This document shows positions 4,771 to 59,908 of a stretch of DNA of 64,000 bases, one piece after another. The notes beneath the pieces are model-generated. The model did not search any database. It saw only the letters and a list, made by a program, of their open reading frames with translations, and had not been told where the DNA came from. The stretch's first letter is position 1. Each line of letters opens with the position of its first letter. The DNA comes from Macrostomum lignano. Its lineage: Eukaryota. Position numbers and translations under genes: made by a program. Location: contig NIVC01000485.1 of the NCBI GenBank assembly GCA_002269645.1, forward strand, positions 9,108 to 73,107, given 5' to 3'.

Positions 4771-4775
<5 letters not shown>

Positions 4776-4804
<29 letters not shown>

Positions 4805-4805
4805 G

Positions 4806-4852
<47 letters not shown>

Positions 4853-4889
4853 GACTAACTAACTAACTGACTAACTAACTAACTAACTG

Positions 4890-4946
<57 letters not shown>
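4776..4946. repeat. (TAAC)n microsatellite at the end of the left OATP duplicate
   Basis: Direct reading; the longer counterpart (TTAG)n is at ~20719-21140. Confidence 0.95.
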
Positions 4947-5103
4947 TTAACTGACGAACTGACCAATCACAGTTTTCAAGATCATCTTACACTCATAAAT
5001 TAAACCTAGTAGTGAAAAGTAAGTGGAAATGATCCACAAGAAACCAGAAGCAACTGAAGATAGCTTGTATGTCACAAAAGCAGAAGAATGAACAAAAACT
5101 CAC

Positions 5104-6141: not shown

Positions 6142-6173
<32 letters not shown>

Positions 6174-7643: not shown

Positions 7644-7799
7644 GTTGCCGCTGGGCGTCAAGGATGCTGAATTGGACGCCACAACTGCTAATATTGCGCA
7701 TGAAAATTAGTTTTTTTATAGATACTTTTATTATATGATTATTAAAGATTCAGAAACACTACAGATAGAACACAAATCTGTTTGTCTGTCTCTCTTCGA

Positions 7800-15344: not shown

Positions 15345-15520
15345 GTTTAGTGCTCCGCCGTAGCCGTAGCTACGGCTACGGGATCCTACGGCAAATACGG
15401 TAAAATAGGTGCCTACGGCAGCTACGATACGCTACCGTAGTAGCTGCTCTTACGGCTACGTCTAATGGAAATATGGTATTTGCTGTCACATTCCGTAGAT
15501 TCCCGTAGCCATAGTTATTA
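15345..15520. mobile_element. CTACGG/CCGTAG-repeat element end, related in opposite orientation to ~290-410
   Basis: tagtgctccgccgtagccgtag resembles the reverse complement of ctacggctacgg...cagcggaacacta near 355-403. Confidence 0.4.
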
Positions 15521-15664
15521 ATGTTAAAAATTGATAAAAATATTAGAAACAGGTAGAGTAAAACAAATATACATTTAGTAAACTGTATTATCAACCTAGA
15601 AACTTATAGAATATACCTGAAAAAGTAACAATAAAACACTAGCAAACTCTAATTTTTATTAATG

Positions 15665-15679
15665 NNNNNNNNNNNNNNN
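15665..15679. other. Assembly gap (N run)
   Basis: 15 N bases; the right duplication arm starts immediately after them. Confidence 0.99.
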
Positions 15680-18030
15680 CTAGATAGTTAATTTAGTTTT
15701 TTAAAGGAAGGGGTGGTTGATCAATACAAGGGCAATAAAATAATTAAAGTGACAAGAGGCCAACACAGAGGGAGGGGGAGGCAAGAAAAGAAAGATAAGG
15801 GGGTTGAAAACGGATCGATAATTTCAATACCCCCTAGGCCTACAAGAACATCAGTTGTTCACTGATTATGTAGGACGAAGGGACAGAACGAGAGGGAAAG
15901 GGTGCAGGCACGATTTTCGCGACCATATACTCATAAAAAGCGACGCGTCAATCCAAAGTCCAAACGAAAGGACGTGCAAAACTTTTTTCAGAGCGCGTAA
16001 AGCTGGCAGAAAGTAATTTGCGAGTTTTTGTGAAAGAGAGAACCCTCAAGGGAGACTTATCACAAAGACTGGGTGAATTTTTGTAGGCCCAATCTTTGGC
16101 TTAGAAATCACTGCTATATACTGCTAGCCAAGCACCTGTTACTGCTTTCTCACTTCTCAGTACTTTTTTTGTTTTTTTATTGCCGTAGCCCGGTAGCTAG
16201 TTGTTTTTGTTTTAATATATACCTGAATCCCTAGACCGATTCACGTGATTTTCCGCCCTTAAATTTGAACTGCTTACCTAATCAGGCAGAGTGAGAGAAG
16301 GGAGGAAAACACTCTGTGTACTTTTATTGTTTCACTAAAACCTAGCTTTACGCATTACACATTTTGCTAAAATCCTGTGCTCAAGCTCATTGTGTGTGTG
16401 GTGTGCCCACAGTAAATCCGTGCGAGTCCAGCACACTGTTTACTCTTATTTTCTCTCTTACCCCCTTATATCTCTCCTATACTCATGTTCTGCTAGCACT
16501 GAGCTAACATTGTCTGCCTGTTAGACTTTATTCATGCCGTTGCTAGGGCGTTGTCAGGTGGGGGGGGAGAGGGCTTTTTTGATAGGCTTAGTTCCGGCTG
16601 TGGAAGCACTGCACTAGAGCTTTTACTGCAGTCTGTATATTCCATACAATTAAATATGCAGTTTTTATTTAGTTTATCTTCGATTATGCTCGCAATTTTA
16701 ATTTTTCTCAAGACTTTTACCAATACTCATAAATAAGGTTGCCTTATTTATCTTTATAAGCCTGTTTTCTTGGTCTAATTATATTATATATAAAATATTA
16801 TATTATACACTCACCATACGCAATAGATAGTGACAGTCTGAGGTTACCTAATCGTTTTGCGCTTCAAAACATAATAGTTATATTTATCGCTAAAACATAA
16901 GAAAAGTATGTGCTCTCGTATCTTGAAATATTTTGAAAACACTTCTCAGATGTATCGTAGACAGATATGATATGTACGAGTATGTAGCATGTTACTGTCA
17001 TGTAAAGTTCTAAAAGGCCGATTGAAAAGCAGACAAACGGACACAAAGACAGACAGACAGAAACACACGAAACTAAAACAGACAGACAGACCACCAGGAC
17101 ACTAAGACAGACAGAAGCGCTAGACACGAATACGCACAGAAGCGCTAAGACACGAAGACAGACAGAAGCACGAAGACAGACAGAAGCACTAAAACACGAA
17201 GACAGACAGAAGCGCTAAGACACGAAGACAGACAGAAGCACTAAACCACGAAGACAGACAGAAGCACTAAACACGAAGACAGACAGAAGCGCTAAGACAC
17301 GAAGACAGACAGAAGCACTAAACCACGAAGACAGACAGAAGCGCTAAGACACGAAGACAGACAGAAGCTAAGACACGAAGACAGACAGAAGCACTAAACC
17401 ACGAAGACAGACAGAAGCACTAAGACACGAAGACAGACAGAAGCACTAAACCACGAAGACAGACAGAAGCACTAAACCACGAAGACAGACAGAAGCACTA
17501 AACCACGAAGACAGACAGAAGCACTAAGACACGAAGACAGACAGAAGCACTAAACACGAAGACAGACAGAAGCGCTAAGACACGAAGACAGACAGAAGCA
17601 CTAAGACACGAAGACAGACAGAAGCACTAAACACACGAAGACAGACAGAAGCACTAAGACACGAAGACAGACAGAAGCGCTAAGACACGAAGACAGACAG
17701 AAGCGCTAAGACACGAAGACAGACAGAAGCGCTAAGACACGAAGACAGACAGAAGCACTAAACCACGAAGACAGACAGAAGCACTAAGACACGAAGACAG
17801 ACAGAAGCGCTAAGACACGAAGACAGACAGAAGCACTAAGACACGAAGATGGACGGACAAGCAAACACTAAGACTCGAAGAGAGACAGACAAACAGATTT
17901 GTGTTCTATCTGTAGTGTTTCTGAATCTTTAATAATCATATAATAAAAGTATCTATAAAAAAACTAATTTTACAGCGCAATATTAGCAGTTGTGGCGTCC
18001 AATTCAGCATCCTTGACACCCAGCGGCAAC

Positions 18031-20723
18031 ATGCCGCCGGGTCAAAACGGCGGCCATGAGCACAGCACCGCCGCCCCTAACGGCGGCCATGAGCACAGCA
18101 CCGCCGCCCCTAACGGCGGCCATGAGCACAGCACCGCCGCCCCTAACGGCGGCCATGAGCACAGCACCGCCGCCCCAACGGTCATCGCCGACTAAAAAGC
18201 GACGCCGGGCCGCTCAATAATCGTCATCACAACCACGCATCGTCTACTGATAAGTCAGCCGCGGTGGCTCGAGCGCATTCGTTTGCGCCTGGACCTCGCG
18301 TCGTGCCTCGTCATCATCAGCACCATCAGCAGCAGAACCAACACGGAGCAGCTCTGGGCCATCGGCGAATGCACAGCTGCCCGCCGACTCCGCACCACAG
18401 CTGTTTCTTCCAGGCCTGGCCATCCTGCCTGGAGGCTTCAACACCGAGTCAATCGTTGACAATCGACAGGATCAGCATCAGCATGGCAACAGTCGAGCTC
18501 GAGACTACGAGTTGGCAGTCGGCGCCACCCAGCTAGAGACGCCAACAACTTCGGCTTCGGACGGAGACGATGTCGGAATTGTCAACGATGCTTCGGAGGC
18601 TACGACAACGACGACATCGACGGAGCCAGAGCTGGACCCGAAGCTCACCCAATGCGGCCTGTTCTGCTACCACCCTGCCTGTCTGCAGCCGCTCGCCCGC
18701 CCCCTGCCATTCCTTGTGTCCGTCATTGGCTTGTACTTTGTCCAAAGCTTCATAGTCAGCGGCTATATTAATAGCATCAATACTACTATTGAGCTGAGAT
18801 ACGGACTAACAACTAAAGAGATTGGCTACATATACGCGTCGTATGAAGTGTTCTGCATTGTGGCTACATTCTTCATATCGTATTTTGGTCACGGCGGCAA
18901 CAGATCCCGTCTATTGGGCATTGGCTGCGCAATCATTGGTATTGGATATTTTTTCTTTGCTTTTCCTCACTTCCTTGGCAGTGCCATTAGTAACACGGTG
19001 CCAGTGTCTGGTAATGCTTCCTCTTCTTCGACTGGCTCTTCTGCCTCCACGATTAGTAGCAGTGGAGTCAAGCTGTGCAGCGGGGGAGGCGGTGGCGGCA
19101 CTTCAGATATGAACTGTCAAGTGCAGGACTCAGCCTTGCTGATCCTATGCCTGAGCTTTGGTCTCATTGGCCTGGGCGCTAGCCCCGTGTACATCCTCGC
19201 CCCAACCTACCTGTGGGACAATGTACCTCAGAAGAGCTATCCTCTGTACGCGGCTTCGTTGCACATCACTAGCGCTCTTGGACCGGCTTGCGGCTTCCTA
19301 GGCGGCGCTGTGTTCCTGTCGTTGTACGTGAACTTTCCAAGCTCAGCGCCCGACGGTTTAACAACCAGCCATCCTCTATGGACGGGAGCCTGGTGGCTAG
19401 GATTCGTCATTTTCGCTGGTCTCGCTCTGCTGGTGGCTGTTCCTCTGCTGGCATTTCCAACTGTAATGCCGCACACTGCAGCGAAACGGTTGCAGAAGCA
19501 ACAACAGCAGCAGCAGCAGCAGCAGCAGCAAAAAGCGCAACGTTCAACGTCCTCTCTAGACGCCGACGAGTTGACGCGAAATTCTTCAACAACAAATAGC
19601 GACGCAGCGATTGTGTCTTCAACAAATGATGACGATGAAGAGCCTAACTCGTCTCTGGATCAGTCGGCAGCTTCTTTAAGTCCGGCTGAGAAGCCGCACA
19701 TTCGCGACATCCCAGCCGGTTTAAAGCGGCTGTTCAAAAACGCGTTATGGCTGTTTATCAGTCTGCTAATTGTGGCCGAGCAGTCTGTAGTACAAGCCTT
19801 CGTTGCTTACGTCAACAAGTACATGCAAAAGTCTTTTAATATCCCAGTGACGCAATCCAGCATCATCACAGGTTTGTGTCTTGATTTTTAAAATTCAATT
19901 CAGTGACTTCGTATATTTCGTTGACTAGCAGGTCCTTAAGTGTATATTTTGACAGATCCTTCAGTGTCCATCATGACACATCCTTCAGTGTCCCATCATG
20001 ACACATCCTTCAGTGTCCATCATGACACATCCTTCAGTGTCCCATCATGACACATCCTTCAGTGTCCCATCATGACACATCCTTCAGTGTCCCATCATGA
20101 CACATCCTTCAGTGTCCCATCATGACACATCCTTCAGTGTCCATCTCAACACATCCTTCAGTGTCCATCCCGACAGATCCTCGTTTAACTCCCATTCTGA
20201 CACCACCAGCTTCGGTTTAACAAACTTGCTCCCCCAAAACTACTACCAGGCGCTCTCGTCATTCCTAGCGCCGTGATTGGCATCGGCGCCGGGGCTTTAA
20301 TAATGCGCCGCTATAGGCCTAGCAACAAATCGGTGAGCCTACTCATGATGGGCCTGTGCGCCGCTACCACATTGCTCACTATTGGCCTGGCATTTTGCAC
20401 CTGTCCGAATGTCAGCATGGCGGGACTGAATGCTCAGTATGGCATCCCGGCTACTAGCGGTGCGGCAGCTTCATCATCAACAGCTGCTGCTCAGTTGCAG
20501 CTAAATGTGAGCTGCAATGCCGCCTGCCATTGCGGCAGTCTCAGCTACGATCCGGCTTGCGATGCTGTGAGTTTTTGTTCATTCTTCTGCTTTTGTGACA
20601 TACAAGCTATCTTCAGTTGCTTCTGGTTTCTTGTGGATCATTTCCACTTACTTTTCACTACTAGGTTTAATTTATGAGTGTAAGATGATCTTGAAAACTG
20701 TGATTGGTCAGTTCGTCAGTTAA

Positions 20724-20784
<61 letters not shown>

Positions 20785-20821
20785 CAGTTAGTTAGTTAGT
20801 TAGTCAGTTAGTTAGTTAGTC

Positions 20822-20876
<55 letters not shown>

Positions 20877-20941
20877 CAGTTAGTTAGTTAGTTAGTTAGT
20901 TAGTCAGTTAGTTAGTTAGTCAGTTAGTTAGTTAGTTAGTC

Positions 20942-27887: not shown

Positions 27888-28310
27888 CACTACGTATCGC
27901 GCCATTAGAGCTGGGTTTTCAGAATTCTGACGCAAAAAACGCAAATTATACTACTATCTGAAAATGAAGTAAGTAGTATTCGAAAACGCTATCCTAAGCG
28001 TGATATATGGCAATATGTAGTCGTAATAATCCATGTGCTCATATATGTACATTAATCCCATGTACATTAATCCCTATCTATCTCAAATTGGATATGTACA
28101 TTAATCCTATGTACATTAATCCCTATCTATCTCAAATGTCCATGTCTATACCCAATTCTATATGTACGCAGTATGTGCATTAATCCACATGTATAGTGTC
28201 ATCCCCAGACGGCCCGCGCACACCAAAATTACAACTCGAAACCCTACTACATGTACAATCTCATCCAAATGAGTCAACTAATTGTACAGCTCACATCGTA
28301 TATAAACTAT
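27888..28310. mobile_element. Left ~420-bp inverted repeat beginning CACTAC
   Basis: cactacgtatcgcgcc (27888-27903) is the reverse complement of 49518-49533. An exact ~34-bp block (ttatactactatctgaaaatgaagtaagtagtat) and further blocks also match, with moderate divergence overall. Confidence 0.8.
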
Positions 28311-28706: not shown

Positions 28707-31700
28707 TTATTTATAACCATAAGGCCTGCTGCCGGCCCCGTACACACGTTTTGTCAGGACGCGCTGAAACGTCTTGTCCATACTAACAGCGTGAATGGTA
28801 CAAGACGCCTTGTCGCGCCTGAACTGAAACTGCGGCAGCTGCAGAGAGCCACCGTGTAGCAGTGTGTTGCGCAGGTCGTCGCTACGCTCCCGTATCTCCG
28901 GAGTCAGGCGAATGCCCTTGCATTTCAAGACCTGGCTCCGGACACCGGCCGCATCCTCGACAATGTAAGTGTAGAGCTTGGGCCCTCCACTTACAAAGTC
29001 GGTCATCCGGCTGCCTGTGGGCACTTCGTCGGTCCACATTCCGAGGCTCGTGCCATGGGGCGGCTCCCATTGGCCCTCGGAATGCCGGTAAACGACCCTG
29101 TGTGGGGGGGAGAGAGAAAAACGAGATAATTGCTAACTATTTACATGTAATCAATTCTAAAAGAGCAATACTTACGAGTCAGTGTCGCAGTAAATGGCCC
29201 GTTCGCCGAGCCCCTCCAATGCCTCGTACAGGCGCAGCCGGGCCTGCGTGGTTGTAAAAACACCGATTGGCACGTTGGAGTAGCGGAACGGCCGCTGATT
29301 AAAGTAGCGGTGCCGGTACTCCAGCAGCATAAACTCGCTGCCAATCGGTTCGCAGGCCTTGACTTTGAGGTTGGGGTCGGTCAGCCGGGCGAGCCAGTCC
29401 TCGTAGCTGGATACAATTTCTGTCGATGTCAGGTCGTCACGCTGACAAAATTTACCCCAGAGCCTGCGTGTAAAGAAAAGCTACTGTTAGTAGAAGAAGA
29501 AATCGTTTAAAAATCAATTTATGAATACTTGCTAATTCAAAAAGATTTTCACTACAAAGCGAAGTCCTGGGTTGGGCTCGACCTTGTCCAGCGTGACGCC
29601 CTCCTTTGCGTAGAAATCGGCAATATAGGCGGCCTTGTCTTCATCTGACATGCCGGGGGAGCCGCTCGACTCAGCCTTCAATTTGAGGAAGGTGCTGACA
29701 TAGTCACATAGTCCAGTAGGCCAGCGCGTGCACCACCTGCAGCCGGTAGCCCAACTGGAAGGCCTTTCGCAGCTCCGGCGTGGCCCAGGTGCCAGTCAGC
29801 GCTCGCTCCTCGTCTGAGTGGTCGCAGCAGCCGCTGCACTGCTGCTCCATACAGGTGCGGCAAAGCCCAAAAAGAGCTTCTTTTGCACCCTGTAGGGCAG
29901 CAGCGGAATATGCAAATCTGACGGCGGCAGCACTGTCACTTTGGCAATGCCAAAGTAGCTGGCCAGCGCGTCAGAATCGAGCACTTGCGGCGTCGGGTGG
30001 TTCACCGGGTGGCCAATCGGGTACGGGTCTTTCGACTGCACCGTCGGGTACAGAGAGACCTGCCAGTTGAAATAAAACATTATTTTTCATAAACTGTATT
30101 TTTGCAAAATATTCTACTACATTAGTAGTATCACTACTCACCACATCCCGATATTTGAGAGTCTCAGTCTCGCTGGCCACAGCATGCGGGATAAAACACT
30201 CTACGCGGCCGCCGTAGAGCGCATCTTCCATCTTGAGCGGAGCGCGCAGATGTGCAGTTGCGGCAATGAAATCAGCCTGCGATGCCAATACAGTGTCGTA
30301 TTCGTGCTCCCAAATGACTCGAACACTGTAATTGTGCCGCTCCAACTCGCGAGTGAACCACTCAGTCTCGTGGCGGATATGGCTCAGAGGCTGCCGTTTG
30401 AGCGGGTGGACAACATCCTGATCGGGCATGCACTGCTCGCAGCCATGGTAGAAACAGCCATGAAACTGCAAGACAGTGTTGGTGGCCTCATCAAAGCCGT
30501 CCACCTTGCGGCCGAGAATGACCGCCTCACCGCCAGTCGAGTCGCAGGTTCGCAGCCGCCCACCAAATTCGGTGGCATTCAAATAGGCCAGCCACTTGCG
30601 CGCCTTGAATGACTGCTGGTCGGCCTGCCGGGCAATCACGCCGACCGAGTTGGGCTCCATAAATCGGGTGGTGAAAACGGCCATTGCCAAACTGGCAATC
30701 GTGTTGGCCTGTACAAATGGTTCCAGGCCGTCACAAATGTCTCCAATTATTGCCCTGTACTTGATGCAGCCCTCGCGAAGCAGCACCGTGTCGCTCAAAC
30801 AATAATCGAGATATTCCCGATTAAAGTTGAACAACTCGCCCTGTCGCGAGGCCAGCCAAGCACAGATGGAGCCGTAATCCTTGTTTGTCTTGCCGCCATA
30901 ATAATCAATAGTCGGGTAGGAGCCCACGTAGTTCCAATTAGCCGGCTTGTTGAACTCGTGGGGAAAGGTCCCCTTGGCCAGCTTTGTGTCGGCGAGCCCC
31001 AGAGCTTTGGGGAATTGCGCAAGCGGGATTGGTATAAAATTAAACGAATCTTTAAATACCAATTTATCAACCGTCATGCTCATTAGCCGGCTGCCCTGGA
31101 ACAGTACTTGGGGCCGCTTCTTGGCCAGGCCGTTGAGTAGAGCGCCAAGCAGTAAAAACGAATCGTAGCCTGATGCATTATGCGCGACAACAATGGCGCC
31201 GCCTCGGAATGTGGTGCTTAGCCAGGCGAAAAAAGCATTCAGCGAGGCCGGGCCCACAGCCACAAAATCGGCCATTTGGCAGGCGCAGTCTGAAGGGCTG
31301 ACGCAATTGGAGAATTCCTTCCCCAGATCGCGGCCAGTCAGACAATTGGCAGTGCTATGCAGGCCATTGCAGAGGCGGCAAGTCTCGCGCGGAAATGCCC
31401 GGCCGGAACAGGTCTCGCAACACGTGACGGCAGTCACCAGATGCACGTGATGCTGCTTCTCCTCATCCGTGTATGTTTCCGTATCGTAGAACACGTACGG
31501 CATAGTTGAAGCTTTCACTTTGGAAGCCTTGACGAAGCACAAATGCGAGCCGGCCTCGTCATACTGTTTACACAGTGGGCACTTGATGTGGCCGCACTTG
31601 TGTTCCGGCTCCTTCTGGCCGGGTTTTAGTTCTTCGCAATACCCGCAATTAGCGCAGACTCGGACAGAGTCGCAGCGCGACCGCCCAGCCCGGTTTTTCC

Positions 31701-32881
31701 GGCGGTGGTTGTCAAAACACTGCTGATTGTAACAATTCAATCCGCAGTCTGGGCAGCGCTTGTAGTCGCACCGCAGGCTCTTGCAATTGGCGCCGGGCGC
31801 TTTACACTGAGGGCAGGTGTTGGAGCACTTGTGTTCTCCAGACACGCAGTCGTACGGCTGCTGGCAGCGGTCGCAATAGCGACGGGCACCGAAAAATGGC
31901 GGCACCTTGCACACCGCGTTAGTGCTCGCCAATTAGGTGCAAATTCAGCACTGTGCTGCCTGGTAGGGCGTACACACATGTATTGCCCTCCTCGGCACTG
32001 TACACACGAACGCCGAAATCCCGGCCTGGTGACTGGGCGTTCAGGACAGCCAACAGTTGGGGGAGCATGTCAACCCCGAAAGGCCCGTCCTGTGCAATGG
32101 TTGATAAAGACTAAAACATTTGTATATTAATAAAAATGCAAATTAAAATGTGCAAGATTATTTTTTACTCACCGAATACAATTTAGCAGCAATCTGAAGC
32201 TCCCCAGTCAGCTTCTTCTGCATTGTGGAGTCGGCCTTGACGGTTTGCCATGTAGTCCTAGTAATGGCCTTGGCCTGCAGATCGGCGAAAGCCTTGGCCA
32301 CCACCAGCGCCCTGATGAGGCAACGTTTGTCGCTGTTGGCGATGACGACATAGCTGTTGCCCATAGCATGCCTGGCCTGAATATGCTTTTCCGCCGCATC
32401 TAGGCTGCCGCAGCCGCCCCGCGGAACCCAGGCCTTGAGCAAAAACAATTTAAAGTTGTTACCCAAGACGCTGGAGTCCGACTGCAGAACCTTGTTGATA
32501 TGTTTAAATATCAGCTCTGCAGTGAAGCGGCTGCGGCGGACGGGCGGGACATTGATGGCGAGCATCATATTGTCCGCCGTCAGCTTAGATGCGACGAAAT
32601 CATCTGCCCGCAGGTCCTCACAAAGTGTAGAAATTACTTCTGTGAATGTGGCGCGAATATCAGTGGTATCGGTGAATGATACCACATACTCATACCCTGC
32701 GGCTCTAAATTTAGGCAGGGCTTTCGCCCCGCCAAGATGCGCAATGAAGCCTGAAAAAATGAAGGGTTTTGAAATTAGAATTGCGAGAGGCGGCGGGTGT
32801 ATGACTCATGAAATAAAATCAACTCTTTACCATCGCCTTCGACAGTGTCGGGCTGGGGCGGGGGTTGAAATTGAGCCAAAT
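28707..32881 (-). pseudogene. polB: Polinton/Maverick-type protein-primed DNA polymerase B with >=5 introns; exons 32881-32831, 32750-32173, 32110-30142, 30059-29533, 29463-29176, 29097-28707
   Basis: Exonuclease motifs YDTETY, HNASGYD and YCLSD; internal nuclease-like KVDGF...QFHGCFYHGC; polymerase motifs YGGRVE, DV|VSLYP, KxxLN(S)|LWGKF, YCDTDS| and GPKLY. Introns of 62-82 nt restore these motifs. Lesions at ~31920, ~29880, ~29700 and 29533. Confidence 0.9.
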
Positions 32882-32893
32882 CTGCAATAAAAT

Positions 32894-35136
32894 GGGTCGT
32901 TCTCAAAGCTAGGTCACAACTTTTTGTTATTGCAAAAAAAGTTTATACATCGACCAAAAATCGTACAAAAAAAATTATTTCGACAATTTCTGTAAGAAGC
33001 TGCTACTAAAACCACAAGAAAACTTGAAATTGAGAAGAAATCAAGGCTATTTGTTATTCTTTGTTGCGGAAAATAAACGACAAAAATATTAAAGAGAAAA
33101 TAAAATTTTCTTCTATTTTTATTTTAAATATGCAGTTAAATTTCTTTTGCAAAAATAAAAGAACAAGAAATTGACAAAGGAAATGTTTTTGAGCACAGCA
33201 TTTTGTTACTCTGCTCTAAATCCCAGACATTTAAAATTATCGTGTGCGAAAAAGTGCGAAATTATTATAGCATGCACTCGAAAGGACTTCGATCAGTTTA
33301 ACTAATCACTGAATTAAGAAGTCTAAATAAGTCTTGAAAGGTTGAATTAAAAATCAAGTTTTCACTATGTATATTTTCAAAGTCAAGATGATTCGACAAA
33401 TAAAGAATGTTCATTTTTACGGTGAATAGAATTGTTCATTTTTACATTAAATATAATAAAATCTAACTAATAATAGAAAAAGTCAGGGAACTATCCTTGA
33501 ACACCAAAAAGCACATTGTGGATTTAATATCAACTGCATGTTCCTTAATAAAGGAATTCGGATTCTAGTATATATTTGATTATTTGTAGCATAATTTCTG
33601 AAAACTATAACTTGCTTGATTTTACTTTAAGTACTTATTACATTAATACTTATACCAAAGCTACATGTACTTAAAATAAAAAATTATAGTTACTTATTAG
33701 ACATTTTACTCCAATTAACTTGAAATAATTCAAATTTATTTTAATTAATTCATTTTTTGAAACTTTTTGGAAAATAGACAAAATTGAATTATTTAATTAC
33801 CAAAAACCTACTAGCTTAACTAAAATAGCAATTAGTCTTTAAGAAAAGAATTCACTTGTTAATTGAGAAAAATGAGGATGTGCGAGGTGTAAAAATGCGA
33901 AAGAGCATGCAGGAAACAGAGACAAACAAAAATGTAGGTAAAAGACACTGCACATGCACATAATATGATAACCAGACATAATGTCACGTTATTGGCGTAG
34001 CGGCCAGCTATGCGGTGACCCTTAAAAGGGCCGTTTTAGTCCCAAAATAAGTTGAAGTCAATTCTTGTAAAGCGGATTTTGTAGCGGAGCACTTGGCGAT
34101 AAAGGCAGGAACTGCCGTAGTTGTCTTTATTGTTAATATCAGTATTAAGCTTGGTTGTTACTGGCAATAAACAGACTATAGCTTTCTGGGCACTGGCGGC
34201 TGCAACAATGGGTTGAATATAATTTGGATATGAAGTCAAGTGGCAGGCGAATGACACAATGGCGACGTGACGTGAGCAGTGGCTATGAGCACAGTGAAGG
34301 CAGTGAAACGTAGTGGCGAGTTGGCGTCGGTCGTGGCGTGAAACAGTCAAGTAAGTGTGTGAGCAGGCTGGCCCAGACAGAAGGGCCGTGGTGAGAAATA
34401 AGGAGGCTCGAGGCAGCCAGACAAACAGATAAGACAGCTAAGAGGCCGCAGGGAAGGAAACAAGGAACAAGCGGGGAGTGCCGCCGCCAGGCGGGGGGGG
34501 TTTAATAAAAGAGCGCAGAGGGGGTAGCGCGAGCACGAGTGATTTCATTGGCTGGCGAGAGAACTTAAAATTATCGATCGTGCCAATTTTATACGGTTGC
34601 GAGAGAGGATAGCAAAATATACAATGAATTATAAATTGCCACAAAATCGTTGGGCACTACTACAAGTAAACGTCGCAATAAACGAATGGAAAAGTTTAGT
34701 TGAAACGGTGAAACTGAAGGGTTGAATGACTATGGAGAACAGCAGTCCAACGGCCCTTTTCGGGACCACCTTAAACTGACAACGTCACAATAATGCGCAC
34801 ACTGAAACACCAGTAGCAATGACGCCCAAGCTTTTGATGATCACAAGCGAAAAGGCAAAACCCAGCCATCAATCAAAGAAGTAGACTTTAGCACGCATCT
34901 TGAGTGCATCACGCATTTTTTGCAGAGAAGCTCGAAAATTAACATTGTATTCTGTGCACAACCACCAACTGCGACAGGGTCTGCCGGGGGATTTGTGGGC
35001 ACGCGGTCGCGGATACAAATCGGAGGAGTCGCTGACCATTCTGAAATTACTAGCTAGTACATGTAATTTTGTGTATTAATATATTTAGCCCGCTTTATTT
35101 CTATGCTCTCGTCCGCCTCTCGTTAATGCATCCCCA
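32894..35136. mobile_element. 2.24-kb dispersed repeat, copy 2
   Basis: Direct copy of 1150-3395; it begins ~10 nt upstream of the first recognisable polB splice acceptor. Confidence 0.8.
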
Positions 35137-38100
35137 GGACCCCAGACTCTTGCAATAATCAAACTTATGATCGAACTATGCATGGCTTCCGTCCCTCGCT
35201 TTGAATCTCTCACCTCCCCATAGTTCCATCAACCTTACCTTAGTGGCTTCCTATGCAAAAATCATCCCTCCGCATCTTACACAGGCTACTTCAGGCTGTA
35301 GACTGTACTACACTTTTACTTCAGTAATTAGTTGCGCTATAAGGAATCTACATGCATTTTGCTCGCAGCGCAGCGCGTTGCTCAAAGAAGTTTAGTTCTA
35401 TCTAGATATTCTAGTAATTTCATGTTTTTCGATAGACTAGAGCTCATGAGATGAGAATTCCATTAACTAGTACATTTAATATGAATGAACTGCGTGTGTG
35501 TGTGCTGTGCATACATATGTATAATATACGAGTAGTTTATGGGCCAAACTATTGTGTGGCACAATTCTTGGCATCACTCAGCAGGCACAAGATGCAGTTA
35601 AGCAGCGCACGAAAATTCTACAAAAGAAATTGAGCCTGGTTGAGGTGATGCGAGGAGGCAGATCCACACAATCTCAGTGAATACACCAGACTGCACCAGA
35701 TACGAGTCCAGTCGAATGAGTGCACTGGTCTAAGCAGCACACGCATGTCCTTCTGACAATGACGGCACCTAGCTTCGTCCAAGCCTTTGCCAGCGTCACT
35801 GACAGCGTTAATACTACCATGCAGTGCCACCTGCAGCACCGACAACGGCAATTCCTCCAGTTAGCCCACAACAGTGGCTAAACTGAGGGACAGGGAACCT
35901 ACCCACAGAAGACACACACATACACACACAGCACCGGCAGCAGCACTCTGACAGCATAACCTAAAGCTCCATGAGCTCAGTTTTCAAGCATTGAAGAAGC
36001 AGAAGCAGTCATCTTGGATCCAGGGATCAGGAAGAGTGTTGCATGTCCGACATGTGCTGTTTCCGTGGCAAAAGGTGATGGAGCAAATTAATCAACACTT
36101 ACTATCTAGCTCGTATTAAGACTAAAAAACTGAGGCAAGCAGGGATTAAACCAAAGAAAATTTTTTACTATACTTTTTTACCATACTTTTACTATACTTC
36201 TATAGTATAGTAGAGAGGTACTCTATTTAAATGCAGTAAGAAGTGAAACAAATTTATATATTTAATTATTAAATTAAATTAATTCAAGGTAAATAACTAA
36301 TTTAACCAATTTATTAGGAGTATTTATTATTATAATAAATTGATTTTTATACCTTACACGAAATAAGCTCTACATTCATTTCTTAGCTTGGGGCCCATCT
36401 GTATAAGGTCAGTTTCTTCAAAATGCTGATTAATTAATTAAGGCCTGTTGTCTTTACTTAAATTTATAAGGGCATCTTAGAAGTTAATATTACTATATAA
36501 TACATGTATAATAGTATTACTATATTATAATAATATAGTTGCAATTTTAATGACTATTAAATAAGTTTAAATGCTTCCCCTATTGACTCTAAATATATGG
36601 TATCTTTCCCTTCAGAAAAAATTAGCATAGAATGACTTGATGAAAACAAAAAAATCATTTAGAGATACACATTTGCTGATCATTCAGGTCAAATTTCAAG
36701 GTCCAGTTTTGCACATGTTTCTCTGTAGCTTGGTTACAAGGATTTTAATAAAAATATAATAAATATGTCCAATGAACTAACTGATACATAGCCAAATTGA
36801 AGTATTTTCAAAAACAAAAAAAATCTTTTGCTCAGTTTACTTTACTGGATATCTGTGTAAAATTTCAGCTCAAAAGGTGCTCCATGGAGAATGCTAGTGT
36901 GGTTACAGGATATTTATTTTGTGCTTCAAAGTAGGAGTTTATTGCGATGCATGGTTGCTTTTAATTATTTTTATCAACAATAGTGCTCTATTTCATAACA
37001 ATTTTTTACAAAAAGATAATAAGACATGTTTTTCTAATTATCTGCATCAAAATGTATCATTTTAAGCACGCATTCTAGACGTCAGCCGAAAAATACATTT
37101 TGTGAGACGCAAAGAGGCTATCCCACCGGAAATGCTAGGCGTACAGTTAAGCGTCTATAAAATCATTTGTAGTGCAGTTTATTGAGCTTTAAAAAATTCT
37201 TAAATTAAATTTATATAAGCTTTAATTTTAAATGTAATATAGCAAGGTTTCAACACAACAACAACTTTTTTTAGCTACAGACATCTTGTAGTATCAAAAA
37301 TTAACATCGGTGAAATGATTGAATTTGAATTTTTTCAACGCTAATTATCGCTTAATACCGCCAGATGATTAAAAACACTGTTGTATGATAAAGTTCAACC
37401 CAAAAATTATCTTTATTGACAGATAAAAGTGTCCTATTATTTTCAATATGGCAGTAATAATAGTAAATGTTTGGAAAATTGTTAAAATTTTTGCTCCTCC
37501 TAGAATTTGCGAACGACCCAAATGCGCATGGTGACTAAAATTCTGACCGCTTGGAATTTTACAACTGTCAAAAATTTTTTGATTGATTGCCTGCAGCAGC
37601 AGCAATTTTATCGCCCCACCCCAAGCAACAAAAATCGGCGAGTTGTAAAAACCCCAACTCGGCACGTTCCGACACGTAGCAACAAAAGAAATGTGGGGTT
37701 GATTGAACCCCGCTTCGAATTTTAGGCTGTCAAAAATGTTTGATTGATGACCCTGATAACACTGATCCTGCCGCAGCAGACATTGTAAAATTTAAGAAAA
37801 CCCCCTATCAGCACGTGCCTCCATTGTGCCCCCTTGACACCTAGCAACAATACCGCGCGGTCGCTTTTGGATTTTTAAAGCTGTCATAAATGTCTGATTA
37901 ATAACCCTCACTGTAGCAGCCAAGTTTTATTGCTTCCAAAACCCCTACAATTACCGGTACAGCGGTGATTACATCATCATGCCCAAAATCGGGGGTTGAT
38001 TTTATCACTGCCGCCAGAATACCGGCCTGCCCACCCCGCTGAGTCACGTTCGCGCTGCAGGATTGCTGTTTTTGCTTCTCTCTAGTTCAAGGATTAGTCA

Positions 38101-38496
38101 CATAACCCCTGAAATTTTATGACTATCCTCTACAGGCATTATCCGGCTATACTGCTGCTGCTGCGGATATTCTCTAAAACTCTGTTATTTCAACAGGCCT
38201 GAATTTGAGAAATCCAGTTCCTCCCTTTACTTCAACATCTATGTCAAGAGGAAATTCAGAAATTTTAAGTCAAAATGAATGTTAAAGATGAAAAGCAGCT
38301 GTGGTTTCAAAGAAAGCCCATATTTCAACTAGCGAAAAAATTTGCAAATCACACAAATGCTAAAGCAATTATACAGCCCTATTTTTCTGAATTCAGATTT
38401 TGCAAATGCTAAAAGCATAGTTTTACACACGCAGAGACTCACCCAGCGGGCGTCCCCTCTTTGCGGCCGGAGGCTGATGCTGTTGTTGCTGTTGCT

Positions 38497-40362
38497 TCTT
38501 CTTCTTCTTCTTCTTCGTCTTCAGCGCTCGCTTTACCGGCGCGGCGGCGCCGAGATTTGCGGGGGCCATCGCCCCATGCTCCGAAGGAGCGAGAGACATT
38601 TTCCCGGGTTCCGGAGGAGCTCCTCGTGATCGTTCCCGACCAGGGCCATCCGTCGAGCGTCTCCCCGGTGGCAGTGAAGTAGCGCATGGGCGCTGTCGTC
38701 GAGTTCTCCGCAGTCCGGGCACTGCGGATTATCGATCATACCGAATCGGTGCTGGGTCTCGGCGCAGAGCATCGTCATGCCTGCGCGAAGCTGGCACACC
38801 GCCGTTTGCTCCCGCCGGTCTCTCGCTTTGAAGTCCGGCCAGGGTTGCGGCAGGGTTTCTTTCTCCAGGGTCCGGCGATCGCGGCGAATGGCTGCTTTTG
38901 CGGCGTTGAAGGAGATGGGCACTTCCTCTTGGGGCAAGCCTCTTGCCATGCCGGCCGCGCGGTCCGCCGCTTCATTAAGGCTGATGCCGCAGTGGGCTGG
39001 CACCCAGATTAGTTCTATGTCGGCCGTTTCGTTGATGTCTAGCATGTGGCGCCAGCAGTCCGTACCGGTCTTAGTCGCCTGGGCTAGTGGTCCGGCCCCT
39101 AGTGCTGTCAGTGACGATAAAGAGTCGCTACATAGGCGAATCTTCTTTTCGCTCGGGCTGCGGTTGTTCTTAATAAAAACCAGTGCTTCGCGGATGGCTA
39201 TCATTTCTGCGTCAAATGAGCTACAGATGATTCCGGCCGGGGCCTTGCGCACATGGCTCGCCAAGTTCGTGCAGGTTATAGCGGCGCTGCCGCCGGGTCC
39301 GGTGCCGTCCGCCACCGATCCGTCTGTCCACACGCTGATGTCAGCCTCAGGCAGTGACTGCAGAAACTCCGTTGCCGCCGCGCTCCGGGACTCCTGGGGG
39401 TCCGTGCGGCGGCATCGGGCCGAGATGTCCAGGCGGATGTTAATGTCCCGTGTGTCGCACTCCCACGGCGGGATGCCGGGGCTTACCGGGTCGCCTCTTT
39501 TGTGGGAATCCAATATGGCAACCGACGGCAGCTCCAGTGCCGCCCTCCTCCAGCAGTTCCGGAAGGGGCGGGTGGCGTCCCGCGGGTCGATGAGGTTCAG
39601 CGAGTTCGGCTGTGCTTCGTCGTCGGCGCCGCCGTCTCCGTGGGTGCGGCCGTGATCGCGTGCCAAAGCTTCGTAGGTACGGTTTTTCAGTCTAGGCCTG
39701 GTGTTCCGCAAGGCTACTTGTCCCGCCGAGACACTCGGGTCGAGTCTGAGGACTCTTTCCCTTAGGCGTGCCGCCCTCTCGGACGCGATGAATGAGAGCG
39801 GTGTGAGCCCGGCCAGTTGTAGGACTGAGCGGATGTTGGTCGGCATGATACATCCCGTAATCAGTCTCGCGCACGCGTTCTGCTGCTGTTCAATAGCTCG
39901 TCTGGTGGAGGGGGCGGCGCCGCATAGCCAGGTACCTGCGGCGTACTCGGCCACAGCGCGGACGGTACTGATGTAGGCTGTTCGGATCGTTTGTAGATCA
40001 GCTCCGGTGCTCCTGCCGGCCATCGCTGCGAGCGGTCGGCGTCTGGCGCACATCTTGGCGCGGACTGTCGCGGCGTGCTGCGCGAAATTGAGTTGACCGT
40101 CTAGGCGAACACCGAGGTAGTTCGGGGCTGGGTCAAAGGCTATTGGCTTGTCATCGATGAGCAGGTTGAGTCTCTTTTTGCCGTTTGATTCCTTTGCGTC
40201 CAGCGTGAAAGTGCCGTACACGCTCTTTTCCACGCTGAGCTCCACTTTCCATTCCTTGCACCACTGTGAGACGGCGTTCAGCGCGGGTTGCAGCTTCTCT
40301 TCACATGTGTCCAGAGACCTGTTAGAGGTCAGGAGGGCGCTGTCATCGGCATAAAGACGATA
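38497..40362 (-). mobile_element. 5'-truncated RNase-H-bearing LINE A (I-group/Ingi-like)
   Basis: Runs from LYADD through RNase H (WTDGS, WVPAHCG, NEAADRAA) and a CCHC-like motif to a (GAA)n tail. 10-bp TSD TGCTGTTGCT at 38487-38496 and 40363-40372. Confidence 0.9.
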
Positions 40363-40388
40363 TGCTGTTGCTGCTGCTGCTGCTGTTG

Positions 40389-43300
40389 TTGTTGTTGTTG
40401 TTTTGGTGGTACGCGCCCAGGCAGAGCTAAGGGCAGTGTCTGGCCAGCGCTATCAACCCGAGGGGGTCGGCGGAAATGCTGCTGATGTCTGTCGTGGGTC
40501 CTCCAAGAAGGCGGAGCCTGGTGCCAGCGAGAGCTGGGCAGTCAAGCCAGTGTTCCAGGTCATCGCAGGGATGGCCGCAGCGGTGACATGCCGGGTCGAC
40601 GGCCGGGTCGACAATGCTGCGATACGCGTTGAAAAGAGTGCAGTGACCTGAGCGTAAGCGCGCAAGAAGCACCGCATCGGCACGGTTGGTGATGGAGTCC
40701 TCTTCCAATTGACGGTTGAGAAGCCGGTACGCGTGCCGGGTGCGCTCGTGGCGTATCGGGGGATCGAGGACGGATCTTCTGATGACGTTTTTGGCGCTGT
40801 GGATGCTGATCTGACTAGCGGGAGACACGAGCGTGGTGGCCTCTTTGGCTGCTTGGTCGGCCAGCTCGTTGCCAGGAATATTCTGGTGGCCCGGAACCCA
40901 CTGCCAGGTGATTTCGGCAGATGCAGTAGGTAGTGCAGATCTGATTCTGGGGTTGCCGCTGGCCAGAGCGCGGAGCATAGATTGGCTGTCGGAGCAGATG
41001 TTGGTAGCCGCGGTGAGAGCAGCTTGGTTGATCCAGCCGATGGCGAGAGAGGCGACGCGAAGCTCCTCTTCGAACGAGGATGTGGAGGGCGCGCCGCGCT
41101 GTTGAAGAGTCGCCAGGATGATAGGGTGGGCTGGGTCACCGGTCGTGACGATGGCTGAGGCGCCGCCATTGGTCGTGCCGCCTGATGCCGAGCCGTCGCA
41201 GTAGATGGTGATCAGGCCTGGGAGGTGGCGGATAGTGTCGATGGCCGTGGCTGTGCGCGCGGGACCGGGTTCCGGCAACGCCATGTCGACACGCACGTCG
41301 GTAGAGAAAGGGTCCCAAGGCGGCGGACGAGCAGTGCAGATCATGGCGCGCGGCGTGACCGAGCTAGCTATGAGTGGCAGCAGGTCGGTGACGTGGTTCC
41401 GCCAACTGTTCCTGCGTAGCCTGTGCGCTGTGTTACCAGTGGCGGCAATGCGGCACGGGTGAGAATCCGGGAGGCGCTGAGCTCTTTCGAAGGCCGTCAG
41501 GCATATAACATTGCTACCAGTGCGGACGGAGCAGATGCCAGCTTCCAGCCTAAGGGCCTCAACCGGTGTCGTGCGGTGTTGTCCTGTGACAATACGAAGA
41601 GCTGCGTTCTGCGCTCTCTCCAGCTGTTGAAACGCGGATTCAGAGAGCCAAGGGTGCCAGGCCGGCGCTGCTAAGTTAATGATGCTAAGTTGCATGGCAC
41701 GGTAAATGCGGATCAGGAGTTTTTTGGACCAACCCCATTCCTTGGAGGCCAGGCAGGCGAGGAGACGGCAACGGGAAGTGGTCCGATTGCACACGTGCTC
41801 CAGATGGCTGCGGAAACTCAGAGTGCGGTCCAGTGTGAGGCCCAGCAGCCGAGGCGTTGGATTGTGCCGCAGGTTCCGGCCTTCGATAGAGATAGCCGGG
41901 GACCAGGCGGCTTCGCTGGTGTCCGTGGAGAAAAAGGCGGCCTCGCTTTTGTCTGGGTTTAGGACCATTTTGTGCTCATTGCTCCAGCGGGCCACGTTGT
42001 CGAGTGCTCTTTGCACAGCGCGTTGAGCCTCTAGCTTGTTGCGGTGGCGGGCGCGGAGGGCGATGTCGTCGGCATACATGGAGATCTCTGCCGGCGGGTT
42101 GACCACGTCATTGACCGTGTCAATGAAAATAAGGAAGAGAAACGGAGCGATGACCGATCCTTGCGGGAGGCCCTGGCGCATGATAACCGGTGAGCTGCGA
42201 GGACCGTGGAGTTGCACGCGGGCAATGCGATGGTGCAGAAAGGCCGCAGTCCATTTTATAAAGACAAGAGGGACGCGTTTGCGTGCCATAACGGTGATGA
42301 GGCGCTCACGCCACACTTGTCAAGGCTTTACAGAAATCAAGCAGAGCAATGATCGTGCGTTCAGATGGTTTGAGGTTCATCCCGTCGCTGATGTCTTGGG
42401 TGACTCTCAGGAGCTGATCCTCGCAGGAGTAGTTGGCCCGAAACCCCGCCTGGTTCGGGGAGATCCAGCCGTGGCGCTCAGCCAGGTGGTGCAATCTAGT
42501 GACCAGGATGCGCTCGAGCAGCTTGACAATACAGGATGTGAGGCTGATGGGGCGAAAGGCCGCGATGTCCCGAGCTGACTTTCCAGCCTTGAGCAGGGGA
42601 ATAATAATCGCGGTGCGCCAGGATTGAGCGACGGCCGCGTGCTGGAAGGACCAGTTGAAGAGACTAAGCAGCTCTGCGCGGGCGAGCGGGCCAAGGGCCT
42701 TAATGAACCGAGGCGTGACCTCGTCGGCGCCAGCAGCGCCGTTAGCACGCTGGTGTTGTATGGCGGAGTCCAGTTCCTGCTCGGTGATGGCGGCGTATCC
42801 GTCGTGGGTCGAACCTGGGAGCGGAAGGGGAAGCCGAAGGATGGCTTTGGCTTCTCGGATAGTAGCGCGATCCGAATGGGAAATGTGGTACCTGCTGACA
42901 GAGGCGTACTGCTTGGCAAAGGCGTTGGCTTTGTCTCTAGGGTCTGTTAACACTTTGTTGCCGACCTGGAGGGCCTCATTAGGGCAGTTGGAGTCCGGAG
43001 TGCCGTTAAGGCTGCGGATGAACTTCCACGCCTTGTTCGAGTTGGGCTCTTTCTCAAGATCGGTTATCGTGTCACGCCAAGCAGCCTCTTTCGTTGCCCT
43101 GGCAATTTTGTGAACGTTGGCGCAGGCGCTGAGCCAATCTTCTCTATTCTCGCCAACGGAGCGCCTGAGGCGGTTACGGAGCTTAATCGCCGCTTTGAGT
43201 TCAGGGGTGAGCCAGGGACGCGGTCTGTGCGAGGTACGGACTTTGCCGATGCAAAGGTTTGCCGCTTGCATGACTATATCATTAAAACGTTTGGCTCTGG

Positions 43301-43684
43301 CGTCAAAGGTAAGATGCTCTTTGTGAAGGGCTTTAAATTTGTCCTCGACGACCGTTTGGAAAGCATTCCAGTCGACCCCTTGTTTGCGCCATATGAGACG
43401 GCTTTGGGCCTTAGGCAAGGTCCTAACCTTGAGGTCAAGGCGGATCACAATCGGCGTGTGATCACTGCCGAGGTCATCGGAGACTTGCCAGGTGCATTTG
43501 CTAGCCAGCTTTGAGGAGGCGAAGGACACATCCGTTGAGCTTTCGCCACCTGTGGCTTTATTGACTCTGGTGGGCGAGCCGTCGTTAAGGATTTCCAGTT
43601 GCGAGTCGATGGACCAGTCCAGGAGCGTGGAGCCTCGTTCGTCCTGGGGCTGTATAGGGTCCCAGGCCGGAGAGTGCTCTGTGC
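40389..43684 (-). mobile_element. 5'-truncated RNase-H-bearing LINE B (I-group/Ingi-like)
   Basis: APE C-terminal half (NDGSPT...GSDH), RT (FRPISL, GLPQGS, YADD), RNase H (YCDGS, WVPGH) and a zinc finger, ending in a (CAA)n tail. ~20-bp TSD (TGC)5TGTTG at 40369-40388 and 43685-43704. 1-nt frameshift near 42325. Confidence 0.92.
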
Positions 43685-44042
43685 TGCTGCTGCTGCTGCT
43701 GTTGTGAGGGGCCTGCTCGCCCCCACAAGGCTGAAATTGCTGCTTCAGCGGCCGAACGTTTTGATGCCATGCTTCTGCTGCTGCTGCTGTGCTACTGCGA
43801 TTGCGGCTGATGCTGCTGTGATTGCGACTGTGACTGCTGATGCTTGCGGTTTCTGATGCTGCTGCCGTTTGCTGATGTTGTGACTTCTGCTGTTGTTGCT
43901 TCTTCTGCTGCTAGCTGTGCTGATGCTGCTGCTGTGTTGCCGCTGTTGCAGGCTGATGCTGTTGAAGCAGTTGATGCTGCTGTTGTGGCTTCTGCTGCTG
44001 CTGGCTGCTTTTGCTGATGCTGCAGCAGCAGCTCTCACCCGC

Positions 44043-44050
44043 TTTATATA
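44043..44050 (-). promoter_or_regulatory. TATA box upstream of the polyQ/AT-hook exon
   Basis: Minus strand GGG-TATATAAA-GCGGG, followed by a CAG-rich leader and the ATG at 43770. Confidence 0.55.
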
Positions 44051-46965: not shown

Positions 46966-47841
46966 TGTGACCCTTTGCATTTTGCGCCTTTTTGAGCCAG
47001 CCGATGCCCAGGTCTAGTATCCTATCTGCAACCATAGGCATTTCCGCTAGCTCATGTAAGAATTTAGTTTGCGTGTAACTGGGAGCACCATAGCATAATC
47101 TCAGGGCTAGATTTTGGGTTTGTTGGAGTTTGGTGATGCTGTCATTTCTGAGTACTTGGAGAATTGGTGCCCCATAGGTCATGGTGCTCTCAACATATGC
47201 TCTGTAGAGCATTTTTAGTGTCTCACTGCTGAGTTTAGTAAGTTTGGAGATTCGATGGATTGACATAACAAGTGCCCTGCATTTGGTGATTACAGCCTCA
47301 CAGTGGGGTTTCAGGGTGAGTTTATAGTCAAGGTTGATGCCCAGAAATTTCACTTCTTTTTGGTAGATTAAGGACGCGTCACCTAGTTTCAGTTCTGGCC
47401 TAATGTCCCTTCTAGTCGGGTTCGCTGGGGCATAGGAAAAAACTATGGCTTGACTTTTGCTAGCGTTTATTTTGATACCTTGTTCTCCGCACCAGGCCCA
47501 AAGGCTGTTTAGGTAGGGTTGAACTACATTTCGGAGTTCTCCGAAGGACTTGGCAGATGCCCAGATGGCCATGTCATCTGCAAATTGACTTTTCCTAATG
47601 TTTGGATGACCCGTATGGGGCATTGTGCTAATGAAGAGCAGGTACAAGAAGGGGCTGAGTATACCTCCCTGGGGAACGCCTGCCATAATTTGAAACGAGT
47701 CACTGAGGATGTTGTTAACTTTGACCCGAAAACTCCTGTTCTCAAGGTAGTTGGAGCAGATCCTGGTGATGGCTGTTGGCAAGTCTATCTGGAACATTCT
47801 ATACCTAATATAGTTGTGGACCATCGTGTCAAAGGTTGTGC
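46966..47841 (-). mobile_element. Non-LTR retrotransposon RT fragment (LINE C)
   Basis: GVPQGGILSP, QFADD and KFLGINLD motifs; the frame is cut by the MITE. Confidence 0.88.
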
Positions 47842-49144
47842 GGGATTCATTCCTGCTTCGAAGCCGTCTAAGGTCAAGTTAAAAACGACATTTGGACACA
47901 TTAGCTGTTGAAATTATGGTTTCCAGTGATGAAACTACTGATTTTGATCAACAAAGTCTGCATTTTAACGTAAAAATGCATAAAAAATGGTGAAAAATTG
48001 TATTTTCTTATGAAAAAATGCACATTTCTAGTCATTTAGCTTTCAAAATAACCAAATTTCTTGTTTGAAATTCCAACTTTACTTTGTATGGAGAGGTCAG
48101 TGCATGATTCATTCCTGCTTCTAACAGATTAAACCGACCGTCTCAAAGACCAAGTCTGAAAGCTTCAAGTGAGAAGGCATGGGGAGGCGGAGAGGTAGAA
48201 TTGAATATTTAAATATGTGGACTTCACTACTTCTAGTATAACGCAAGGGTGACTTATACAATTTACAAAGTTTAGAATCAAGTAAATCAGAATTGCATGC
48301 GGTGATTCATAGGCTGTGTACATTTACAAATGCAGCTGGGGTTTGTCAATGCAGGTAGAGGTAGAGGTTGGCGGACTCGGATTTGTTCAGATTCTTGGGG
48401 TTGATGTGTGCATTAAAAGTTGGTTTCTTGCTAACTGCTTCTATAGGGGTATGGATGACGTAATCGGAGAAGAGAGGGGTTTTGCTGAATGAAGTTTAAT
48501 ATAGGGTCTGTGCTGTGGAAAGATCTGTCTGTACACTGAAAATGGAGAGAGGGTCGAAATTCCTTGGCATTTAGAAGGGGAGAGAGAGAACAGGGGCGAG
48601 TGTTAAAATTTAGCTCGATTTGCTAGGGTCTGCGCTGTGAAGACGAGTCTGGTGAACATCGGAGGGGTGGCTGTTTTCGAACAGTCTTGGGTTGAATTTT
48701 GACTATGGTCCGAGTTAAAGGGTGATTCAAAATTTAGTATAGGAGCTTCGAGGGGTGAGGATATACCGTACAGCAGTAGCAGTTGATAATTACCAATTAA
48801 AGGTCTTGTATCATCCGCACTGTCAATATAGAATTATAAAGCACTGCTTCAACACAGTCCTGCATTTGGGGTCTGACTTGGGGAGAGGCTTGGATGACGC
48901 AACCCCCACCCCATCGCTTGGCGAGAGTTTGTACAGGCCCGCCTCTATATGATAGTATGTGTATTTTATAAGTGATTTTGAATAAATTATCAGCATATTC
49001 AAACCTACAGTCTCCGAGGGTGAAAATGTACATACCTAATTTTTGGGGTATGTGGCGGATATGAGTATAGAGGCTATCGATGTACATATAGACTCCGACC
49101 AGTATTATTCAAATCTGTCTGAGAAATGTACATTGGAAATATAC

Positions 49145-49533
49145 ATTTACGTTGTGAGGTACACAATTAGTTGACTCATTTGGTAGTAGTAGATGAGATT
49201 GTACAACTGTACATGTAGTAGGGTATCGAGTTGTAATTTTGGTGTGCGCGCGGGCCGTCTGGGGATGACACTGTACATGTAGATTAATGCACATACTGCG
49301 TACATATAGAATTGGGGATAGACATGGACAATTGAGATAGATAGGGATTAATGTACATGGGATTAATGTACATATATGAGTACATGGATTAATACGACTA
49401 CATATTGCCATGTATATCACGCTTAGGATACCGTTTTCATATACTACTTACTTCATTTTCAGATAGTAGTATAATTTGCTTTTTTTGCGTCAAAACATCT
49501 GAAAATCAACCGTTAAAGGCGCGATACGTAGTG
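49145..49533. mobile_element. Right inverted repeat ending GTAGTG
   Basis: Reverse-complement match to 27888-28310. Confidence 0.8.

Positions 49534-52669: not shown

Positions 52670-59908
<7,239 letters not shown>

Follow-up and report, generated by a model that had tools for sequence, protein, structure and literature searches.

A spliced Polinton-type DNA polymerase on an integrase- and capsid-free mobile element of Macrostomum lignano: the likely replication half of a bipartite Polinton

Polintons are generally treated as one-piece, intronless genomes. The DNA analysed here, a stretch of 64,000 nucleotides from the flatworm Macrostomum lignano (GCA_002269645.1, contig NIVC01000485.1, positions 9,108 to 73,107; hereafter the window), carries a Polinton-type pPolB gene interrupted by spliceosomal introns, and the question it raises is how old and how genuine these introns are, and what kind of element bears such a gene.

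Structure, age and expression of the spliced polymerase gene

The assignment of the gene to the Polinton-type pPolBs, as proposed by the initial annotation, was upheld, as the large exon matches PF03175 in Pfam (E 1.7e-15) and the window gene is nested, on a long branch, among single-ORF homologues in a FastTree tree (35 rows, midpoint-rooted). The large exon finds its best matches in automatic gene models of M. lignano (90-95% identity); single-ORF Polinton-type polymerases come next, with about 30% identity. Similarity to pPolB was also observed in Heterodera gene models of 1,000-2,700 aa (P0026-P0034, P0036). All five introns originally reported are real, with the coordinates, lengths and termini then given (four GT-AG and one with a GC donor; Table 1). 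These downstream introns (introns 1-5; 62-82 nt) are AT-rich, with a GC content of 0.19-0.38 as compared to 0.53-0.58 in the flanking exons, and three of them split the catalytic motifs A, B and C of the polymerase, as had been claimed. The initial annotation had named homologues encoding the intron sequences as protein as the finding that would speak against it, and this objection was not borne out: in the intronless homologue P0017 the flanking exons abut at 1025/1028, 1209/1211 and 1305/1307, leaving no room for the intron sequences. Of 96 long homologues, 88 have an uninterrupted motif A, 71 an uninterrupted motif B and 84 an uninterrupted motif C. A sixth, most upstream intron and a first exon were located in addition. 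This first intron measures about 0.9-1.2 kb in other copies of subfamily A (see below) and is enlarged in the window copy by an insertion, while the TATA-like box 5′ of exon 1 has a counterpart at the corresponding place in other A and B copies. Judging from its position, exon 3 likely represents the terminal-protein/vOTU region (compare PMC11161782).

Table 1. Features of the polymerase element in the window (positions of the window; strand where assigned)
Positions	Strand	Feature
27889..28220	.	Left TIR of polymerase element; outer 31 nt (27889-27919) are the tip common to the integrase/capsid element
28707..29097	-	pPolB exon 7 (last), to stop codon
29098..29175	-	Intron in motif C (DTDS), GT-AG, 78 nt
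29176..29463	-	pPolB exon 6, open frame
29464..29532	-	Intron of 69 nt in motif B, with a GC donor next to an in-frame stop
29533..30059	-	pPolB exon 5; frameshift near 29873 and short deletion near 29708
30060..30141	-	Intron in motif A, GT-AG, 82 nt
30142..32110	-	pPolB exon 4: Cys-rich region, exonuclease; PF03175; frameshift near 31921
32111..32172	-	Intron, GT-AG, 62 nt
32173..32750	-	pPolB exon 3, N-terminal region
32751..32830	-	Intron, GT-AG, 80 nt
32831..32881	-	pPolB exon 2, 51 nt
32882..38442	-	Sixth (first) intron, GT-AG, with 4.6-kb insertion at 32894-37519
38443..43770	-	pPolB exon 1, Gln-rich, ATG at 43770; LINE-type retrotransposon inside at about 38509-43681
44043..44050	-	TATA-like box 5′ of exon 1 (putative function)
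47836..49532	.	Right end with A-type tip (49502-49532)

The pPolB genes of this type fall into two subfamilies, A and B, with ~65% amino-acid identity to each other. The large exon gave 123 matches in the genome (A mostly at 93-100%, B at about 61-71%) and the last exon 122, all 133 candidates having been scored. Among the 38 polymerase copies examined (16 A and 22 B) all six intron positions are present in both subfamilies. Introns 3-5, located from the flanking peptides alone, are GT-AG at 105 of 107 located sites, and the six introns together at 177 of 179 located sites out of 228 possible, the three most upstream introns having been located with DNA motifs and less completely. The sequences of introns 1-5 align between A and B about as well as shuffles do (z -0.9 to 2.3). 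An introner origin was considered and rejected, as introns 1-5 form no sequence family (the long first intron was left out): all ten pairs within A gave z <2, and one of ten pairs within B reached z 3.9.

The exons are under purifying selection. Low dN/dS values, mostly 0.03-0.2, were obtained exon by exon. Comparisons within A gave 0.03-0.17, those of four exons within B gave 0.03-0.14, and those between the subfamilies 0.11-0.21; the value of 0.42 for the last B exon is probably inflated by frameshifted copies. Where the five downstream exons could be located, every frame is open in 4 of the 8 A copies and in 6 of the 7 B copies. Contigs from three runs of three studies, guessed to be RNA, join exactly across the last intron of another A copy, which served as reference in place of the window copy; a fourth, DNA-like run showed no such join. 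In one run the aligned parts of two contigs break off at the intron 3 and intron 4 donors with further letters beyond, which is a hint only. The junctions listed in RNA contigs represent one of the six introns, the last, with 38 joints outside those listed, and among the listed runs, whose kinds were likewise guessed, none on record as RNA contains the window stretch. The proposal that this lineage was long expressed through the host spliceosome was thus borne out by intron positions older than the A/B split and by the RNA-contig junction.

A mobile polymerase element and the decay of the window copy

The gene resides on an element whose copies measure 8.5-10.8 kb, longer or shorter where insertions or deletions have occurred, with terminal inverted repeats (TIRs) of a few hundred bases; the ends are ACTACGTA in A and ACTACTA in B. 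A 6-bp target site duplication (TSD) flanks all 30 elements with both ends read (12 of 12 A, 18 of 18 B). The ~100 dispersed polymerase loci, a count which may include haplotype duplicates of the assembly, together with the TIRs and TSDs, indicate a recently mobile element. These features bear directly on the suggestion that the gene had been domesticated, the window copy being a pseudogene of a host polymerase: host-like GC-rich exons, six introns, a TATA box and purifying selection would all suit a host gene, but ~100 scattered loci, the presence of TIRs, 6-bp TSDs that differ from site to site and nesting in other elements would not, and domestication is very hard to credit. As to such nesting, a polymerase element of subfamily A lies within a non-coding A-tipped element (L031-L033, C1485), and one of subfamily B within the capsid gene of an unrelated Polinton (L135, C4072).

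The cargo comprises at most the polymerase, a PC4-like gene and a dUTPase. The PC4-like gene is divergently oriented and was found in 19 of the 22 B copies and in 3 of the 16 of subfamily A, scoring just above the Pfam PC4 cut-off in A; the dUTPase lies within at least two A elements, and most A copies, including that of the window, lack both. Integrase, capsid, ATPase and protease of the partner element described below were sought in the 38 polymerase copies with no match inside any; the single nearby capsid match lies in an unrelated Polinton that harbours an inserted polymerase copy. Among 72 further ORFs (at least 75 aa, four copies), in a scan that could miss a finely spliced gene, no transposase or integrase family was recognized, only PC4 and dUTPase exceeding the cut-offs. 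Lacking integrase and capsid genes, the polymerase element taken alone does not qualify as a Polinton, and a 6-bp TSD made without an integrase of its own implies help in trans.

The copy in the window belongs to subfamily A and is dead. Its decay, already recognized, is manifest in frame breaks, insertions and a private splice-site lesion, but the initial judgement of which lesions were genuine had to be reversed. The breaks at 31920 and 29880 had been regarded as possible sequencing errors and the changes at 29533 and ~29700 as less probable ones; the breaks near 31921, 29873 and 29708 are however shared by two loci 98.6% identical to the window copy and are therefore inherited, whereas the GC donor and stop at 29533-29531 are private to the window copy; of the 37 other copies in which the motif-B intron could be placed, 36 show GT-AG. 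The right end is closer to a non-coding class of elements than to polymerase elements and bears no TSD matching the left end, so that the window copy has likely been rearranged.

Several further features of the window were noted. The 4.6-kb insertion at 32894-37519, with short inverted ends, a 4-bp AT-rich duplication and no long ORF, is probably a non-autonomous DNA transposon; the near-identical C583 locus lacks it. At 38509-43681 and 46625-47878 lie LINE-type ORFs (endonuclease, RT, RNase H), which are partly tandem-duplicated in the window copy. A large inverted duplication at 4773-20897, with arms about 99-100% complementary around a gag-like region, holds a long OATP-family ORF in each arm (5781-7706 and 18254-19891), and a long open frame for an AMPK-alpha-like kinase lies amid simple repeats at 57730-59034.

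A partner element sharing a 31-base tip

During examination of the ordinary Polintons of the genome, a TIR element of 10-11 kb (10.4 kb when first found) with the same starting bases came to light. This partner encodes an rve integrase (E 2.5e-8) and a capsid protein which is a double jelly-roll by fold (E 4e-13 to the PBCV-1 capsid; atlas 0.98), and which matches double-jelly-roll proteins rather than the parvovirus-type capsid of Bidnaviridae; searched by sequence, the capsid alignment had no match in the PDB. Further ORFs are presumed, from their motifs, to be ATPase-like, protease-like and minor-capsid-like; the first two are similar to genes of one-piece Polintons in the same genome, and Pfam returned nothing significant for them. 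About 55-63 partner loci, de-duplicated by hand, form two subfamilies (int-A and int-B); haplotype duplicates of the assembly may add to this count, too. In 12 partner elements no polymerase of either type was found, and a 6-bp TSD was read in 9 of 12 with both ends read. The capsid gene is under strong purifying selection, with a dN/dS of 0.04 between subfamilies. Of the initial suggestion that the polymerase belongs to a non-viral element, the absence of capsid genes from the polymerase element itself stands, but the element with matching tips carries a selected capsid gene. The genes otherwise expected within a single Polinton, integrase, capsid, ATPase and protease, are found on the partner only.

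The two elements have only their outermost 31 bases in common and are almost unrelated beyond base 31. The tips sort by subfamily: all 12 int-A ends have their nearest tips in pol-A and all 10 int-B ends in pol-B, the B-type ends of the second partner subfamily having been predicted before retrieval and then observed. Tip positions 9-27 vary in blocks which are common to both halves of one subfamily and never shared between the partner of one subfamily and the polymerase element of the other; int tip variants were found in the pol elements of the same subfamily in 4 of 5, 4 of 4, 5 of 7 and 3 of 4 cases, but only one exact 31-mer per subfamily is common to both halves. Positions 9-27 are hypervariable within the polymerase elements, where 25 pol-A ends yielded 14 variants and 40 pol-B ends 21; the outer bases are invariant, and the two ends of one element usually bear the same or nearly the same tip. 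None of the 50 elements examined (38 polymerase and 12 partner) contains both halves, and no listed pair on one contig is nearer than 45 kb, the closest distances being 45-48 kb. Non-coding elements of 7.7-9.9 kb carry the same tips and TSDs, the TSD being present in 6 of 6 of the A type.

These data suggest a bipartite Polinton whose halves reside on separate elements and complement each other in trans, a reading to which we assign a probability of roughly 70%. The spliced pPolB on its integrase- and capsid-free element would likely be the replication half, and the partner the integrase-capsid half. What is directly observed is the distinct make-up of the two elements, each with TIRs and 6-bp TSDs, the pairing of their tips within subfamilies, selection on the genes of both, the conservation of six intron positions and one RNA-contig junction; co-replication and mutual dependence of the halves are suggested by the shared tip variants and by the TSDs on both, and trans-complementation and virions are predicted from sequence. 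Weighing against this reading are the single exact 31-mer shared in each subfamily, the lack of PC4-like and dUTPase genes in most A copies, the listing of one junction out of six, in contigs of runs guessed to be RNA, and the contrasts in GC3, introns and outside relatives taken up below.

Alternatively, both elements could be deletion derivatives of a complete Polinton missing from the assembly, or could borrow functions from ordinary Polintons. Polymerase-less Polintons beside complete ones are known (10.1101/2025.02.07.637071); the genome searches, which score best candidates only, give lower bounds, and a complete parent could be absent from the assembly. The one-piece Polintons of M. lignano, whose ends, where read, begin with AGT and not ACT and which have the other polymerase type, served as a control. 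Of one AGT-ended family (C494), 2 of 8 members fetched are complete and the others are without the polymerase or capsid region, wholly or in part, so that deletion derivatives do occur in this genome; these share whole TIRs and backbone with complete members, at about 85-99%. The ACT-ended pair is unlike such derivatives, as its elements share 31 nt, have their own TIRs and include no complete member (0 of 50), and the split pattern recurs in both subfamilies, which are separated by a dS >1. The ordinary families read, moreover, have AGT ends and the other polymerase, and we consider deletion or borrowing quite improbable. C494 itself was examined as a second bipartite family and rejected, as complete members are present. 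Further one-piece families were noted (L061-L078, L139-L157, L195-L207), with an EndoVII-containing polymerase in those scanned and some with dUTPase or PC4-like genes.

A different account concerns origin only and leaves the present mechanism unchanged: the halves may never have been one genome, an old, host-adapted and spliced polymerase replicon having been joined by a newer, polymerase-less virus that adopted its tips. The GC3 of the polymerase half (0.67-0.68) as against the partner (0.43-0.49), and introns in the polymerase half and none in the partner, fit separate origins. So do the long polymerase branch, the resemblance of the int-A TIR just inside the tip to the pol-B TIR over 29 nt, and the distribution of relatives: six integrases about 70% identical (P0037-P0042) occur in other public assemblies without matching polymerase relatives, the one outside polymerase fragment found being at 61-66%. 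No relative of integrase or polymerase with DNA context was found in IMG/VR, nor any for a 69% integrase relative in JGI metagenomes. Frequent re-pairing of replication and capsid modules is also reported (10.64898/2026.10.13.758929). On the other side, the A-B synonymous divergence is alike in both halves (1.3-3.0 for the polymerase; 1.3-1.9 for integrase, capsid and ATPase) and the tips co-sort, so that any merger must be older than the A/B split; the gene sets are complementary, with no overlap among the genes tested, and the PC4-like gene occurs also in a one-piece Polinton family of M. lignano. Separate origins appear unlikely, though less so than deletion or borrowing.

Proposed mechanism, known relatives and significance

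Under the bipartite reading, host RNA polymerase II would transcribe pPolB from the TATA box and the spliceosome would remove its six introns. Together with the PC4-like protein and dUTPase in elements that have them, the polymerase would replicate any tip-ended linear DNA by protein priming, and the partner integrase would insert any tip-ended DNA with a 6-bp duplication. The partner capsid, ATPase and protease may package both halves, and the non-coding elements, which bear these tips too, would parasitize the pair. The pair would work like one Polinton, by the same present-day mechanism even if the two elements were paired secondarily. A more specific proposal, put forward tentatively and at somewhat less than even odds, is that of a bipartite integrating double-jelly-roll dsDNA animal virus, with a host-spliced replicon segment (pPolB, PC4-like, dUTPase) and an integrase-capsid segment, both packaged, held together by a shared, recombining 31-base tip and stable through a deep subfamily split.

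The halves summed resemble Polintons/Mavericks (adintoviruses) in pPolB, rve integrase, double-jelly-roll capsid, ATPase-like and protease-like genes, in TIRs and 6-bp TSD, and in size, 19-20 kb falling within 12.7-24.6 kb; here, however, the genes lie on two separately inserted elements. Intact vertebrate Mavericks are reported to be intronless and 12.7-24.6 kb in size and to end in (AGT)2, (AG)3 or (AC)3A (PMC8097293), whereas the pPolB described here has six spliceosomal introns and the ends are ACTAC..GTAGT. Complementary segments with a common terminal sequence and a Polinton-derived pPolB also characterize bidnaviruses and the Drosophila Vesanto virus (PMC8502044, PMC4061559, 10.1101/2020.10.16.342956), but those are ssDNA viruses with a parvovirus-type capsid and no integrase listed in the portions of these sources consulted, while here the capsid is a double jelly-roll and both halves integrate. 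In transpovirons and proposed mobile replication modules, too, replication genes move without a capsid module; transpovirons are described as having their own DDE transposase (10.64898/2026.10.13.758929), in contrast to the 72 ORFs scanned here, and a specific partner with matching tips exists in our case. The polB-less Polintons of Pieris (10.1101/2025.02.07.637071) are alike in polB loss but coexist with complete parents. Introns in Polinton-like elements have been described for dinoflagellate MPLVs (introners) and nematode Maverick cargo (10.1101/2025.03.18.643946, 10.1101/2022.07.12.499685); the former are mostly recent introner insertions and the latter lie in cargo genes, whereas the introns described here are old, interrupt the catalytic motifs of a core gene and have been kept under selection.

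No earlier description of such a split arrangement was found for the Polinton group, nor of a spliced pPolB or of Macrostomum Polintons, in the literature as far as its texts were accessible, a search whose scope left aside Repbase and subscription papers. At least one survey admitted only elements with the full set of core genes inside 20 kb (PMC10748475), a design that would overlook a split form. A natural division into a replication half and an integrase-capsid half gives a concrete example of the independence of modules that has been proposed for these viruses (10.64898/2026.10.13.758929). The likely cis signal for replication and integration is narrowed to 31 bases and is open to test. 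The old introns in catalytic motifs tie production of the polymerase to the host nucleus and spliceosome, and splicing, free DNA and particles can be searched for directly in a laboratory flatworm host.
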